From: a virus
Length of the DNA stretch: 64,000 nucleotides
Strand: one strand, 5' to 3'
Virus record (IMG/VR): IMGVR_UViG_3300015242_000023
Location: 1,802 to 65,801 of that record
The notes beneath the pieces are model-generated. The model saw nothing but the letters and a program-made list of their open reading frames with translations, made no database searches and was not told the DNA's origin. Positions 14,369-49,152 of the stretch are shown here, one piece after another. The translations under genes were made by a program, and so were the position numbers. Positions within the stretch are counted from its first letter, which is position 1; the number at the start of each line of letters is the position of its first letter.

Positions 14369-14580
14369 TCGGCGGCATCACCGAGCCGCCGCGCCGTTAT
14401 CTCGAACATGAATGGCATTGGCTTCACAGCGAGCGCGCATCCCGACCGGTGATCTCACAATGGATCAAGGGCGGTTGGTATAGCCCGGGTGAGCACGGCC
14501 CGATTTCCCCGCAGGAGATGTGGCGCCGCGGTTGGGCCTATCTGGGGCCTGTTCCAGTACCGCCAGGAGATTGGGGATGA
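14365..14580 (+). CDS. Trp-rich hypothetical protein
   Basis: ATGA overlaps at both ends. Confidence 0.5.
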   Translation: MIGGITEPPRRYLEHEWHWLHSERASRPVISQWIKGGWYSPGEHGPISPQEMWRRGWAYLGPVPVPPGDWG

Positions 14581-15863
14581 TCGATTTCAGCAACGCGCGC
14601 GTCGCCGTCGTGGGCGACCTGATCGAGGACCATTGGATTTACGGCCGCGTCGATCGGCTGTCGCCCGAGGGGCCGTGGCCAGTGTTCCTGCCGGAGCGAA
14701 CGGTCGTGCAGATGGGCGGCGCGGCGAATGTGGCCGCCAACATGTACGCGCTGGGTGTGACGCCAGTGCAGATCGCCCCGAACCGAATGGCGATCAAGGA
14801 ACGCTATGTCGTCGGCCGGCACCAGATGTTCCGCGTCGACCGGGAAAACACATCGAACATTTCGAGCCAGGAGATGATCCGCCTATTCATCGCTCTCACG
14901 GAGGGCACCCAACAGCCGAATGTCGTGGTGCTGAGCGATTACGGGAAAGGCTGCTTTGGTGGCACCTTGGCGCAGTGCATCATTGAATGGTGCATGCCCC
15001 GCGGCATCGTCACCGTCGTCGATCCTAAGGGAACCGATTGGACCAAGTACGACGGTGCCACCGTCATTACGCCGAACTATGCCGAGTGGAAGGCCCATCA
15101 GCGCGGCGGCCGCGCGCGTCTGCTCGTGACCAAGGGTGAGCACGGCATAGAACTGCAGGGTGATGGCAGCGACGGCAGGCATTGGATCAACATCCCCGCT
15201 GCCGGCCCGAAGGTGGTCGATATCGTCGGCGCCGGCGACGTGGTCGTTGCTGCGCTCGCCCTGGCGTTGGGTGCAGGCTATTCCATGGAAGAAGCAGCCC
15301 GCATCGCCAACGCCGCAGCCGGTGTCGCCGTAGGCAAGCCCGGCACGTCTGTGTGCACGATCGACGAACTGAGAGGTGCTTGGGTAAGCGGGTGTAGCTC
15401 AGCGGTAGAGCAGCGGTCTCCAAAACCGACGACGGGGGTTCGAGTCCCTCCGCCCGCGCCACTCGTTGGAATCGCCAACGGCTGTTTCGACACCCTGCAT
15501 GCCGGCCACGTCGAGCTCCTGCAGAAGGCAAGGGCGCGCTGCGACCGACTGATAGTCGCCATCAATAGCGATGCATCGACGCGACACCTAAAGGGCCCTC
15601 TGCGGCCGGTAAATCCAATGGCTGTGCGCTGCGCCATGCTCCAGGCATTGGCATGCGTCGGTGAGGTCCGCGTCTACGATCAGGAGGAGGATCTGGTCGA
15701 CATCATCAAGGAGGTAGGGGCCTCGGTGATCTTCAAGGGCGTCGACTACGAGGGCCACCCCACCATCACCGGCAGCGATATCGCCCGCGTCGAGATCATC
15801 AAGACCGAGTTCAAATCGTCCACCGCGCAGGAAGTCTGCAAGGCTCGAGGAGTTTGGTCTTGA
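14577..15863 (+). CDS. hldE: Bifunctional heptose-7-phosphate kinase / heptose-1-phosphate adenylyltransferase
   Basis: PfkB kinase motifs (VVGD, RLSPEGP, GGAANVAAN, LSDYGKG, VDPKG, TPN, GAGD) fused to a nucleotidyltransferase (NGCFDTLHAGH, INSDAS, KGVDY). Confidence 0.9.
   Translation: MIDFSNARVAVVGDLIEDHWIYGRVDRLSPEGPWPVFLPERTVVQMGGAANVAANMYALGVTPVQIAPNRMAIKERYVVGRHQMFRVDRENTSNISSQEMIRLFIALTEGTQQPNVVVLSDYGKGCFGGTLAQCIIEWCMPRGIVTVVDPKGTDWTKYDGATVITPNYAEWKAHQRGGRARLLVTKGEHGIELQGDGSDGRHWINIPAAGPKVVDIVGAGDVVVAALALALGAGYSMEEAARIANAAAGVAVGKPGTSVCTIDELRGAWVSGCSSAVEQRSPKPTTGVRVPPPAPLVGIANGCFDTLHAGHVELLQKARARCDRLIVAINSDASTRHLKGPLRPVNPMAVRCAMLQALACVGEVRVYDQEEDLVDIIKEVGASVIFKGVDYEGHPTITGSDIARVEIIKTEFKSSTAQEVCKARGVWS
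15388..15461 (+). tRNA. trnW: tRNA-Trp(CCA), nested in frame inside hldE
   Basis: Acceptor GCGGGTG/CGCCCGC, D arm GCTC-AGCGGTA-GAGC, anticodon loop CTCCAAA, T arm GGGGG-TTCGAGT-CCCTC, G73 discriminator, encoded CCA. Confidence 0.9.
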
Positions 15864-43104: not shown

Positions 43105-43632
43105 CTAGTTTGCGTCGTCGCTGGTAGGGACCTGCGAATAGATGATCGTCACCTGAGCATACGGAGCCCCGGTCGGGGCCGTGCCGCTCATCGCGATACT
43201 GGCCGCCACAGTGCCTATCTGCAAGTCCGCACTGCCGGTGACGCTCTGGTTTGTCATTGCGGCCAACTGCGCCGCCGTGAAGGTCGGGCGCGTGCGGCCG
43301 GTGGCCGTCATGCTGACGTTGCTGGCATAGGTCGTGGCGCCCGCAGTGGCACCGACCGACAGCGTAGCGCCCACGCCGGCGCCAAAGCCCGTCAGGGTGT
43401 CCACGATGATGTCGATGATGTTGGCCCGGCCGCCGCCCAGGCTAGCCGATGGCAGATACAGGGTCGCAGAGACCGTCCCGGTGCTGCCGCTGGCGCCCGC
43501 GAGCGTCATCGACTGCTGCAGGACAACAGGTCCCTGGTTGAAGGGATAGCTCGTCGGCGGCGAGCCGGTCGCCCCAACTGCATCTTTGTTGGGACCGACC
43601 AGCAGGGGGCCGGAGAGAGTGCTCTTGGCCAT
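43105..43632 (-). CDS. Capsid decoration/auxiliary protein
   Basis: MAKSTLSGPL start, IIDIIVDTLTGF, jelly-roll-like composition, downstream of the capsid gene. Confidence 0.55.
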   Translation of the reverse strand: MAKSTLSGPLLVGPNKDAVGATGSPPTSYPFNQGPVVLQQSMTLAGASGSTGTVSATLYLPSASLGGGRANIIDIIVDTLTGFGAGVGATLSVGATAGATTYASNVSMTATGRTRPTFTAAQLAAMTNQSVTGSADLQIGTVAASIAMSGTAPTGAPYAQVTIIYSQVPTSDDAN

Positions 43633-44324
43633 CAGGCGCGCTCCTTGACGACAGTGAGGGGCGCCGCGCCAGCGCGACCATTGTGGCGGTCCAGATAGCG
43701 AATGGCGGACAGAAGACGATCGCGATCCTCGCCGAGCTTACCAAGACCAGTATTGCACGCCACGCACAGTAGGCCGCGAAGCGTTCCCGTCGTGTGATCG
43801 TGGTCGACGGCGAGCGCCTTCAGCTTGCCGCTGCGCATCTCTGTTTCGGGCTGCTGACAAATGGCACAGACGCCGCCTTGCGCTACAAGCATTGCACCGT
43901 ATTCGGCCAGCGTGATGCCGAACATCTTGAGGAGATCGAGTTCCTTGGCGCGATCAGGATTGGCCTTACGCCACGCCTTACCATAGGCCGAACGGCCTTC
44001 CTTGGTGCGGTGATCGAACCCGTTGGCGCCGGCGACGAGCATCAGATTAGTGACGCGACAGTTGTGTCTATTCTTGTCGCGGAAGGTGAGTTTGCCCGTC
44101 GGCAATTCGCCGTAGTGGACAGCCCATGCAATGCGCTGCGCCGTGAAATCCCAGCCATCAATGCTGATCATCCGATGGCCGTTGGATGCCAACTCAATCC
44201 CCACTTCGCGCCCTTCTTCGCATCCCCCACCCACACGCGACATCCGCCAGAAGAATCGTCCTTCTTCGGCGTCGTATCGGATGAGATCGCGAATGCGATC
44301 TGCGGTGATGCTGTGTGTCTTCAT
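43632..44324 (-). CDS. Endonuclease VII-family homing endonuclease
   Basis: CAICQQPE...LAVDHDHTTGTLRGLLCVACNTGLG plus a degenerate N-terminal HNH-like domain. Confidence 0.88.
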   Translation of the reverse strand: MKTHSITADRIRDLIRYDAEEGRFFWRMSRVGGGCEEGREVGIELASNGHRMISIDGWDFTAQRIAWAVHYGELPTGKLTFRDKNRHNCRVTNLMLVAGANGFDHRTKEGRSAYGKAWRKANPDRAKELDLLKMFGITLAEYGAMLVAQGGVCAICQQPETEMRSGKLKALAVDHDHTTGTLRGLLCVACNTGLGKLGEDRDRLLSAIRYLDRHNGRAGAAPLTVVKERA

Positions 44325-44345: not shown

Positions 44346-45260
44346 TCACGAAGTGGGGAAGATGCCGTAGATAGCACGGGGGTTATAATACCCAAAGCTG
44401 TACCGAGCATACCCCTTCACGAGGAGGTTGTCCGTGGTGAAGTCGACCTGCATGTCGGTCTCGAAGGGGATGCGATCCATGTATGAGAGGCCGTCGATGT
44501 TGGTGAGGAGGAACCACGCGAAGGCCGAGGTCAGGTAGTCGTTCGTCATGTACGACTCGGGCAGGCCGCCCGCGGTCGTGTGGATGGCGTTGACGTCGTT
44601 GTCGGCGGTGCCGGGCCGCAACTCGGTCTTCAGCAGGCGGATGGCAACGGGCTCGAGCTGCGGCGGGATCAGCAGCTTGCGCGCCCGGGCGTACATCTTG
44701 AGGCCGGCCTGGTCGCGGAAGTTGGTGCGGACCGAGATCATCGAGTTGAGCAGCGTGGCCTCGTTCAGGCCCACTTGCGTCGTCGGCGTGTTGGCGTAGG
44801 TGCCGCCGTCGATCGGATGGGCCGGCGAGCACAGCGCCACGCCGTCGCCGCCGATCGCGTTGATGTAGGTGGTCGCGGTGTTGAGGAGGTTCGCGCCGAA
44901 GATTTCCTTGGTCTGCTGGAAGCTCTCGAGCAGGCCGAGATTGGCGGGATGGAACTGGGTCTTGTAGAGGTTGTCGTCGATGGCCTTGCGGGTCATCGCA
45001 TAGCCAAGAGCAATCTCGGTGTGCTCCTGGTTGTAGACGTACCGCTCGCCGGCCTGGTTGTCGAAAGAGGTCTGGCCGCCTTCGGTCTTGAGCTGCGCCA
45101 GCCCTAGGTAACGCATTTCGGCGGTGCGCTCCAACGCCATGTTGGATGTGTGCCGCGTGTAGATGCGATCGTACTGGGGCGGGATCTGTTCGTACTTCCC
45201 GGTCACCCCACGGAGGCCGGGGAGGAGCAGATCCTTGATCTGGGCGAGATTGACGGCCAT
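44346..45260 (-). CDS. Major capsid protein
   Basis: 304 aa; KTEGG...YNQEHTEIALGYAMTRKAIDDNLY...GDGVALCSPAHP...KGYARYSFG; position after scaffold. Confidence 0.85.
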   Translation of the reverse strand: MAVNLAQIKDLLLPGLRGVTGKYEQIPPQYDRIYTRHTSNMALERTAEMRYLGLAQLKTEGGQTSFDNQAGERYVYNQEHTEIALGYAMTRKAIDDNLYKTQFHPANLGLLESFQQTKEIFGANLLNTATTYINAIGGDGVALCSPAHPIDGGTYANTPTTQVGLNEATLLNSMISVRTNFRDQAGLKMYARARKLLIPPQLEPVAIRLLKTELRPGTADNDVNAIHTTAGGLPESYMTNDYLTSAFAWFLLTNIDGLSYMDRIPFETDMQVDFTTDNLLVKGYARYSFGYYNPRAIYGIFPTS

Positions 45261-45272
45261 GGATCCTGCTCC

Positions 45273-45902
45273 TTAGCTGATGCCGGTCGGGCCGGCGCCG
45301 TTCGCGCGCAGCCACTCGTTGTTGAACCCGACGATCACGTCATTGCTAGCCGTGGTCGGATCGGCGCCGTCGGCGCCCGGCGGGAACGTCAGCAGGGCGG
45401 TCACGATGAACGGGAATGTCACCGTCGTGCCCAGCGAGTTGAGGTAGGCGCCGGATCGGCCATTCGCCGTGTTGCCCGTGCCGATCGCATACTGCGCATA
45501 CTGGCCGACGGGCGAGGACGTGAACGCCGACAGCGTGCCGGTGATGTTGAAGTTGGTGCTGAAGCCCTGGACCTGGAAGCGGGCGTTCGGATCGTCGACG
45601 ACCTGGGCGGTCACATCACCCGTCGCATCGGAGCCGGGCCAGTAGTTGCCCCACACCGTGCGCTTCTGGCTCGTCGACAGATAGTTGCACCCGTTGAAGA
45701 CGCCGTCGATCCGGACCGTGCCCGGCACGCCGCGCGTGATGTAGCCGTTTGCCGTGCTGATCACCGGATTGACCGGGTCGCCGGAAAAGAGGGCGAAGGT
45801 GTTGGACGACGCGATGAGCCGCTGCGTTTCGGCGAAGGTGGGGGCACCGCCCGCACCACCCTGATATTGCTGGAACCCATTTGGGTTGAATGTATTCGCC
45901 AT
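45273..45902 (-). CDS. Capsid cement/stabilising protein
   Basis: MANTFNPNGF...FSGDPV...DDPNARF; immediately upstream of the capsid gene. Confidence 0.65.
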   Translation of the reverse strand: MANTFNPNGFQQYQGGAGGAPTFAETQRLIASSNTFALFSGDPVNPVISTANGYITRGVPGTVRIDGVFNGCNYLSTSQKRTVWGNYWPGSDATGDVTAQVVDDPNARFQVQGFSTNFNITGTLSAFTSSPVGQYAQYAIGTGNTANGRSGAYLNSLGTTVTFPFIVTALLTFPPGADGADPTTASNDVIVGFNNEWLRANGAGPTGIS

Positions 45903-46006
45903 GGCTGACGACCTCTCCTTGCGGAGGGTTCCATCATCAGCGCGCCGGGGCGACTACAGGAACAGGAAAACTTGGGGCTGCTTCCACCGAGGAAGCGAGT
46001 GGCCGC

Positions 46007-46036
46007 AAGATAGTCACATAATTTATGTGGCGTAAA
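46007..46036 (-). promoter_or_regulatory. Candidate capsid-operon promoter with palindromic operator in its spacer
   Basis: TTTACG-N17-CTATCT; CACATAA-T-TTATGTG at 46015-46029. Confidence 0.5.
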
Positions 46037-46076
46037 GCGGAGCCTGTGGAGAAGTGCTGCGGGCCAGGCTTGATAC

Positions 46077-46153
46077 TGGCTGCCGGGAGGCGGAATTGAA
46101 CCGACGACCTGAACCCTGGCGGGGTCCCGCTCTACCGACTGAGCTATCCCGAT
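46077..46153 (-). tRNA. Non-canonical tRNA-Gly(GCC)-like RNA
   Basis: D arm GCTC-AGTCGGTA-GAGC, anticodon arm GGACC-CCGCCAG-GGTTC, T loop TTCAATT, 3' CCA; has C33, a 1:72 mismatch and one extra base before CCA. Confidence 0.7.
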
Positions 46154-46254
46154 CGCTCAAGAAACCTGCAGTTTTGGCGCCACCTACTCACGGCAGGTTA
46201 TCCGTCTTGAGCCGCGTGTCCTTCCACGCCGCCACAGCCCGCGCACAATACCCC

Positions 46255-46288
46255 AAAGGAAAACCCCGCCGCAACTGGTGCGACGGGG
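46255..46288 (-). terminator. Intrinsic terminator
   Basis: - strand CCCCGTCGCA-CCAGT-TGCGGCGGGG followed by TTTTCCTTT. Confidence 0.75.
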
Positions 46289-46340
46289 CGGGAAATCTCT
46301 TGCAGCCGGCCCCCTCAAGGGCCACGGAGCAACGCTATCG

Positions 46341-47941: not shown

Positions 47942-48340
47942 TTACCAGATCAAATCTGGCTGGTCGATCACCATCCGGACCGCGGTGTCGGTGACCAAGC
48001 GGCACTTCACGCTGCCCAACGCCATCGGGAATCCATCGGATGGACGGATAGCCACCCAATCGTAGAGCACGGGCCGCACGTTGGAAAACCAGCCCTTCTC
48101 CGGGTCCGGCGCAAAGGCCGTCTCGCCCATCATCACGATCAGGCACGCCTTGCCCTGGAACTGCTCCTCGTCCCGGTATTTGTCGGGCAGGTGGATGCCG
48201 GCTTTCGTCTGCGCCGGCCGGTCATAGATGGCGACCAGCACTTGGTTGTTCATGCACTTGGCCCGATCCAGGAAGGGCTTCAGCTTGTTCAGCAACACGT
48301 CTTTGGGGTCCGTTTCATGGACCATTGCCATTGGCGGCAT
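47942..48340 (-). CDS. groES: GroES-like co-chaperonin
   Basis: NNQVLV...QTKAGIHLP...GKACLIVMMG...KCRLVTDTAV pattern. Confidence 0.8.
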   Translation of the reverse strand: MPPMAMVHETDPKDVLLNKLKPFLDRAKCMNNQVLVAIYDRPAQTKAGIHLPDKYRDEEQFQGKACLIVMMGETAFAPDPEKGWFSNVRPVLYDWVAIRPSDGFPMALGSVKCRLVTDTAVRMVIDQPDLIW

Positions 48341-48543: not shown

Positions 48544-49152
48544 TTAGGCGGTTGGTTCGGGGGCGACAGCCGCGGGAGGAGCCGCAAACCCGTCGCCCCC
48601 TGTTCGCGTCAGGGCCAAGCCAGACTCTGCCGCGCATCCCGTCTCCCGTTTTAAGAGATTATATTTCTGCTGCCGATCACTCTGGGCTGCCCGACGCTCG
48701 GGTGTCCATTTCTTGCCGGCCAGACTTAGTGCGGCCCGCTGCTCGGCAGTCAGATTCCGGTTCCGCTTGGCCAAACTCATTTTGGCGCGAGCTTCTGGCG
48801 TGTGCTTCCGGCCCGGCCGGTCTGTTTTACTGGCCGCTATCCTCTTTCGGCATTCAAGAGAGTGCTTCCATCCGGAAACGCCTTCTCCTCCCTCTGTCAT
48901 ATTGCAAAGATCGGCGAGCGGATAAAAGGCGATCCTTCCCTGCTCCATCGTGAACGCTGCTTCTTCGGTGAGATTTTGGGCGACAATCCGCACATCTACT
49001 GCCATGCCCAGCGCGATCAACTCCGATTGTATTGCGCGATGGTGTCGGCTGCGCCCGCGCATTCTCCAAGCGCGTCGGCCGTTGCCCTTTCCCACGTAGA
49101 AGCAGGCGTCGGTATCGGGGCGCCAGTGCTCGTAGACGTAGAAACTATCCAT
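48544..49152 (-). CDS. GIY-YIG homing endonuclease with NUMOD3 repeats
   Basis: FYVYEHWRPD...FYVGKG, LCNMTEGGEG, HSLECRKRI / HTPEARAKMS. Confidence 0.85.
   Translation of the reverse strand: MDSFYVYEHWRPDTDACFYVGKGNGRRAWRMRGRSRHHRAIQSELIALGMAVDVRIVAQNLTEEAAFTMEQGRIAFYPLADLCNMTEGGEGVSGWKHSLECRKRIAASKTDRPGRKHTPEARAKMSLAKRNRNLTAEQRAALSLAGKKWTPERRAAQSDRQQKYNLLKRETGCAAESGLALTRTGGDGFAAPPAAVAPEPTA

Follow-up and report, generated by a model that had tools for sequence, protein, structure and literature searches.

The window, a stretch of 64,000 nucleotides, makes up most of a 69.8-kb virus record found in soil metagenomes and includes portal, GroES-like and major head genes. Among the head genes, on the minus strand, lies an RNA gene of 184 nt (46055..46238). 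It is situated 153 nt before a gene specifying a 209-amino acid protein (45273..45902, minus strand; PHROG 37556, unknown function), which is followed on the same strand by the major head protein gene (44346-45260; PHROG 371). Directly after the latter is an HNH/endonuclease VII gene (43632-44324, minus strand) that is absent from L080, a relative approximately 95% identical to the window (BLAST gap 44353-43638). Upstream, and again on the minus strand, are a GroES-like co-chaperonin gene (47942-48340), placed among the head genes, and a homing-endonuclease-like gene (48544-49152). The phage also possesses a canonical tRNA-Trp (15388-15461, plus strand; 66.8 bits) within reading frame 14520-15863.

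The upstream gene is closed by a terminator-like stem and T-run (46255..46289, minus strand) which is kept in L080. The sequence-only reading had a terminator at 46255-46288 insulating the unit; the stem and T-run do extend from 46289 to approximately 46255, but the site is weak when taken alone, shuffled sequences giving 0.9 such sites. The terminator scan found no terminator-like site downstream of the element. A weak promoter candidate (TTGCGG, 18 nt, TATTGT; 46245..46274, minus strand) can be read from the sequence and would place the +1 at G46238; the strict promoter scan did not call it. Hexamers resembling a -10 box lie 5–9 nt before the +1 in 23 of 175 members of the RNA family described below, with a mode of 6 nt, as in the window, a spacing pattern which hints at a dedicated promoter. 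A further promoter-like sequence (TTTACG, 18 nt, TATCTT; 46007-46036, minus strand) holds in its spacer a 7+1+7 palindrome (46029-46015), the centre of which, 46022, is the only base of the site that differs in L080 and in soil runs of 2024; the palindrome is a candidate operator for the head operon. One or two copies of a YCYCGGYGYG-type motif are present in the leader of the 209-amino acid protein gene (45903-46000 on the minus strand of the window) in most of 20 relatives, and may constitute a conserved translational operator.

The 184-nt element is matched over its full length by a covariance model (R1) built from 38 other family members, with the window left out (54.9 bits, E 9.9e-10). 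All 17 scaffold pairs are formed, comprising a 7-bp acceptor stem, a 5-bp D stem and a 5-bp T stem. The 5’ strand of the acceptor-like stem (GCUGUGG, 46232..46238) makes seven of seven pairs with 46062-46056, in a helix that covaries in the family. In the fold it is joined by a CG linker to a D-like arm (46214..46229) with a 5-bp stem and the 6-nt loop GAAGGA; this arm is supported by motif matches and by compensatory change in all five pairs. The cargo of 132 nt then follows in two parts, a 58-nt hairpin identified by folding (46155..46212), in the place of an anticodon arm, and a nested tRNA body identified by ARAGORN and Rfam (46081..46153), in the place of a variable arm. The frame is completed by a T-like arm (46063..46080; 5-bp stem and 8-nt loop UAUCAAGC, with compensatory change in four of five pairs) and by the 3’ strand of the acceptor-like stem (46056..46062, from the fold and the R1 match), after which comes A46055; no CCA is encoded. 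All these parts are on the minus strand. They are closely packed, with one base between the D arm and the hairpin, two between the hairpin and the nested helix, and two between the nested helix and the T arm.

An unconstrained fold recovers the scaffold acceptor, D and T arms together with the 58-nt hairpin (-22.8 kcal/mol, z -1.97), which folds as had been claimed for it. At minimum energy the nested body adopts an alternative structure in which the cloverleaf is not recovered, so the inner cloverleaf is not established by energy alone. An alternative pairing of 46239-46234 with 46083-46078 was dropped once the T arm of the family had been recognised. That the architecture is a tRNA-shaped frame enclosing a cargo we regard as almost certain. 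The “glycine tRNA” is the inner cargo of this larger tRNA-shaped RNA and no separate gene. The unit that the sequence-only reading had drawn at 46077-46212 must consequently be lengthened, by 26 nt on its 5’ side and 22 nt on its 3’ side (46238-46055). The R1 match over this interval also reassigns what had been described as a tRNA 3’ end, namely a “CCA” at 46079-46077 preceded by an “extra base”, G46080: both belong to the 5’ strand of the scaffold T stem. The element appears to be laid out like a class II tRNA, the hairpin corresponding to the anticodon arm and the nested body to the variable arm, and such a layout explains A1:C72 and G46080 as junction bases.

The nested body (46153-46081, minus strand) is called tRNA-Gly(gcc) by ARAGORN and scores 46 bits against the Rfam tRNA model (gathering score 29; E 1.3e-6). 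It is closed by a 6-bp helix (46152-46147 with 46088-46083), and its D arm and T loop are intact. The anticodon-like loop (46116..46122, minus strand) reads C32 C33 GCC A37 G38, with GCC at 46120-46118. There is a U:C mismatch in the T stem at 46104/46090 and an A1:C72 mismatch at the acceptor end. The minus-strand cloverleaf, the unusual loop and both mismatches were thus correctly noted from the sequence. Set against 129 tRNAs called in the retrieved loci, the nested body is most nearly identical to Thr (52/73), followed by Gly and Phe (51 each), Ala (50) and Asn (49); its acceptor region agrees with Thr and with Asn in 11 of 15 positions and with Gly in 6 of 15. The glycine identity of the nested body would thus come from the GCC triplet alone.

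The determinants of bacterial GlyRS are G1:C72, C2:G71, C35, C36 and U73 (PMC10464925). C35 and C36 are present in the nested body, and the other three of the five are replaced by A1:C72, U2-G71 and A73. The real Gly(GCC) gene used for comparison has U33 and A38 where the nested body has C33 and G38; the combination of U33 with a purine-purine loop end at 37-38, which is typical of Gly(GCC), is not found here. Nor does a free 3’ CCA stand directly after base 73, the CCA coming one base late and inside the scaffold T stem. These features lend no support to a tRNA-Gly standing on its own, whether of 77 or of 136 nt. They bear equally on the suggestion that excision and glycylation turn the nested body into a non-ribosomal tRNA-Gly serving as glycine donor. 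C35, C36 and a CCA that follows A73 after one extra G would suit such a role, but G1:C72, C2:G71, U73 and a free CCA end are missing, the acceptor is nearer to those of Thr and Asn, and CCA is a variant of the T stem seen also in 3 of approximately 100 other scaffold members; we judge glycylation to be very improbable. The nested body is not a tRNA-Gly; it is a tRNA body, apparently captured, without ends of its own or a canonical anticodon loop. A practical caution is that tRNA callers can report scaffold cargo as a tRNA-Gly gene.

Viral contigs contain more than 119 exact copies of the 20-mer (46233-46214) that directly precedes the hairpin on its 5’ side. Nearly all of these continue with a phage-specific stretch and then a second conserved motif, whose start in the window is at 46081. 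The two conserved motifs are the D-like and T-like arms, and their flanks close an acceptor-like stem of at least 7 bp. In all, 176 distinct relatives of the scaffold were gathered, with cargos of 27–279 nt (median approximately 81 nt) that are mostly unrelated to one another. Watson-Crick pairing at the five outer positions of the acceptor stem runs to 87–100% in 103 members, versus 25–67% in shuffles, and all four pair types occur. A set chosen by its T motif displays compensatory change in all five pairs of the D stem. In the alignment of 38 members, 98.6% of the cells are paired and 14 of the 17 scaffold pairs show two-sided (compensatory) change, a level of pairing and covariation that none of 500 shuffles reaches; slid controls give 26–42%. 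The D and T loops of the scaffold are nearly invariant across the aligned members; the family consensus for the former is GA(A/U)GGA and the latter has 8 nt. CCA at the tRNA position is encoded in only one of 103 members.

No Rfam family covers the scaffold in the window, in 20 member loci or in 20 loci with T-loop cargos, and no description of its motifs or of the topic was found in the searchable literature, subscription journals lying outside its scope. The family is large, widespread among phages and apparently uncatalogued. Two cultured phages, Caulobacter phage DMCA and Acidovorax phage AP1, carry it at sites that are unannotated in both. A model search of 151 bacterial genomes yielded a single member and missed a known copy in G001, and is hence no measure of frequency.

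Side variants of the frame also exist. In a second subtype the D-loop GCUGAU is perfectly complementary to the T-loop AUCAGC (L164, L184, L250, L391 and L402); it adjoins the main family, often in tandem. In L356 and L375 an insert sits in the D loop itself, so that the frame can take up cargo there as well. In two cases (L167:7856-7891 and L311:447-483, both minus strand) the scaffold has as its immediate neighbour an abiF RNA motif that scores over the Rfam threshold; from two such adjacencies we claim no link.

The genomic surroundings of the scaffold vary. The neighbouring proteins are unrelated across the family, and no conserved neighbour was recognised. For 19 of the 176 scaffolds a true tRNA gene is no more than 400 nt away, and in L058 a tRNA-Arg stands directly behind the acceptor stem of the scaffold. 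Since scaffolds are often near tRNA genes, capture of an adjoining tRNA gene is a plausible origin of the nested tRNA. In L058 the scaffold is, moreover, upstream of the same 209-amino acid protein gene. This position, shared with the window, together with the lack of a terminator-like site behind the element in the terminator scan, would suit a cis-acting leader of the head-gene transcript, serving as antiterminator, processing site or stabiliser. We consider such a leader unlikely: most relatives have no element at this site, a separate promoter-like site (46036-46007) intervenes between the element and the 209-amino acid protein gene, and the neighbouring genes are unrelated across the family.

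A comparison with L080 reveals that the element is part of an exchangeable cassette (46059..46242, minus strand): the BLAST alignment ends at 46243 and resumes at 46058, and between these points L080 has instead a shorter sequence, unrelated and closed by a stem. This alternative allele (L080:430-500, plus strand) is approximately 70 nt long, has a closing stem of 8–10 bp, and keeps the spacing of the window element from the shared -10-like hexamer that precedes both. It has no Rfam match, no R1 match and no other exact copy in viral contigs. The scaffold is present in 3 of 11 complete genomes of the phage clade to which the window belongs. The element is an accessory cassette swapped among close relatives.

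Three soil runs of 2024, all from one other study, yielded contigs covering 46029-46277 (46074-46277 in one run). The sole change in them is C46209U, which converts a C-G to a U-G pair and keeps the pairing of the 58-nt hairpin; the anticodon-like loop of the nested body is unchanged. These contigs also close a gap of 3 nt left in the run that is probably the source, showing that the assembly is sound. In the adjoining soil contigs there are 16 differences in 459 bases and 32 in 609, a divergence of 4.5% for the flanks. At that rate the 184-nt cassette of this second population, which represents one further study, would be expected to have 8.3 changes, and it has one (Poisson P 0.002, Fisher P 0.006). 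Selection and a recent transfer of the cassette could each account for the low divergence; random decay does not explain it. The 46058-to-46243 joint was found in the same three runs at similar depth, and the second allele probably coexists with the first in the 2024 soil populations.

These observations weigh on two further proposals. A tRNA pseudogene decaying beside a chance hairpin would account for the several departures from the tRNA consensus and for a score of 46 bits versus 66.8 for the tRNA-Trp of the same phage. It is very unlikely, and indeed already largely refuted: the two conserved halves of a covarying scaffold enclose the nested body exactly, and the 184-nt element is more conserved than its flanks. 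To that extent the earlier view of a tRNA mimic rather than ordinary decay is upheld. A packaging or capsid-assembly RNA, suggested earlier and compatible with the location among head genes, can hardly be reconciled with a scaffold that is carried by so few of the complete relatives, is replaced here in a phage approximately 95% identical, and occurs elsewhere in unrelated gene contexts; we consider it exceedingly improbable.

The cargos of the family as a whole are barely more stable than shuffles (mean z -0.27). A tRNA T-loop motif is found in 4 of 101 unbiased cargos versus 0.4 in shuffles, and targeted scans gave approximately 30 further T-loop cargos. In several of these (L279, L242, L304, L288) the D arm is kept and the anticodon arm is collapsed or missing. 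Cargo subfamilies with a T-loop motif and kept helices recur in distant contigs: L189/L288/L304/L306, L284/L293/L312 and L298/L299/L309. Of 39 cargos of the T-loop type only that of the window passes the default threshold of ARAGORN, making it the most intact nested tRNA. No other copy of the window cargo was found in viral, metagenome or genome scans, apart from partial, more diverged pieces in runs X2 and X4. In a search with its hairpin motif only L159, from which the pattern had been designed, sat in a scaffold.

A phage RNA of cloverleaf-like form, presumably processed and with a cargo that varies, recalls C4 of P1/P7 and CI of P4, antisense RNAs which are RNase P substrates (PMC5499578), and the cargo might likewise act as a guide by pairing with a target mRNA. 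We searched for exact matches on this account. None of 12 nt or more exists between the element and the rest of its own genome, the 176 loci show no excess (35 versus 32–34), and neither do 20 near-complete genomes (mean rank 0.48–0.58). On these exact matches, within the phage sequences themselves, an antisense role is improbable.

The explanation which we tentatively prefer, while holding it to fall short of probable, is that the whole constitutes a swappable scaffold RNA with a protected cargo that acts as a decoy in trans. Transcription would begin at G46238 from the candidate promoter just behind the terminator, and the transcript would be trimmed back to the closing stem. A stack of 7+5 bp with a T-like loop would suit RNase P. 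The tRNA frame would then shield the cargo from nucleases, as in engineered tRNA scaffolds, leaving a stable RNA of approximately 184 nt that would be uncharged and unable to decode. From the features analysed here, a stable non-decoding RNA is the likely product.

The least certain step is the last one, in which the cargo may act in trans by presenting a second tRNA elbow, made of D and T loops, to a host protein that recognises tRNA. That hosts defend themselves by attacking tRNA is established, and genes for counter-defence typically come as patchy, swappable cassettes. A tRNA-targeting defence toxin is a possible target, and the benefit might be felt in some hosts only. We would put this decoy function forward as a serious possibility, to be held with reserve. 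The earlier suggestion of a decoy for anticodon nucleases remains plausible as regards the decoy, but the portion that recurs in related cargos is the D/T elbow and not an anticodon. Because approximately 95% of cargos have no tRNA motif, a tRNA decoy cannot be the function of the family as a whole.

The main rival to the decoy is that the scaffold alone acts, its own elbow binding a host factor, and that what it encloses is no more than filler that is tolerated; the nested tRNA would then be a recently captured, functionless relic. Such filler accords with cargos that are mostly unrelated and weakly structured, with nearly invariant scaffold loops and with the frequent proximity of tRNA genes, and the intactness of the window copy, greatest of the 39 tested, fits a recent capture. 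It accords poorly with the single cassette change in the second population and with the recurrence of cargo types (L189/L288/L304, L284/L293/L312, L298/L299/L309) in distant phages with their helices kept. We therefore rate the filler explanation as possible but somewhat doubtful. Returning to the decoy, a wider proposal would make the natural tRNA scaffold an exchangeable display for captured cellular RNA motifs, with the nested tRNA an anti-defence decoy maintained in balanced polymorphism with the alternative small RNA; this is speculative, and we think it rather unlikely as a whole.

That T4 and T5 produce stable RNAs resembling tRNA is long-standing knowledge. For this kind of RNA the family provides well over 100 natural variants in which a fixed frame is combined with changing cargo, and Caulobacter phage DMCA and Acidovorax phage AP1 are cultured carriers open to knockout. 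In the window copy there are, in addition, a nested tRNA and two natural alleles carried by near-identical phages, which make the role of the cargo directly testable. If cargos are decoys, they would represent a new RNA-based layer of phage counter-defence as well as a natural RNA expression scaffold.

Among known RNAs, the nearest to the family, weakly, is T5 RNA2 (NC_005859, 32959-33083), annotated as “tRNA-like stable RNA with unknown functions”. It was the only R1 match over the 18 kb of tRNA clusters searched in T4 and T5, at a non-significant 9.7 bits (E 1.3). The two share a 7-bp acceptor stem, a CG linker, a D-like arm (with a GAUGG loop in RNA2), a long insert, an A before the T stem and the absence of CCA directly behind the stem. 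T5 RNA2 differs in having a canonical 7-nt T loop, in contrast to the 8-nt loop here, and in the sequence of its D-like arm stem, and it showed no nested tRNA. The T4 species 1 and 2 RNAs (rnaC and rnaD) are likewise small and stable, made by a phage and with no assigned function (PMC9697503), and gave no R1 match. Like the scaffold, rnaC ends in a T arm, but its T loop is canonical, and both genes sit in a tRNA gene cluster, whereas the window element stands alone among head genes.

The engineered tRNA scaffold of Ponchon and Dardel, in which a foreign structured RNA replaces the anticodon arm and is shielded from nucleases (PMC3401473), is our working analogy; the phage frame, unlike it, is natural, variable in acceptor sequence, non-canonical in its T loop and without an encoded CCA. 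As in tmRNA, a large insert is enclosed by an acceptor stem and T arm, but the element has no CCA, no G3-U70 (position 3 forms a U-A pair) and no ARAGORN tmRNA call, measures 184 nt and has an insert that is not conserved. With the bacterial and phage Y RNAs of the YrlA type (PMC4201824) it shares the character of a non-decoding tRNA mimic in phages. It differs from them in that the scaffold loci have no Rfam match and no Ro60 gene (TROVE, PF05731), which was found in none of 50 carrier genomes while control genomes were positive. Bacterial tRNA-Gly(GCC), including the non-ribosomal species, has the GCC triplet, cloverleaf and D arm in common with the nested body, which departs from it in A1:C72, U2-G71, A73, C33 and G38 and has both ends buried in a larger RNA. 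By the features compared, the element is not a tmRNA, YrlA, C4/CI or tRNA-Gly. In its manner of working it would resemble the T5/T4 stable RNAs and the engineered scaffold. We take it as a variant, itself new, of a kind of phage RNA that is probably already known; what the window copy brings to it is the nested tRNA, together with allele-level evidence for conservation and exchange.
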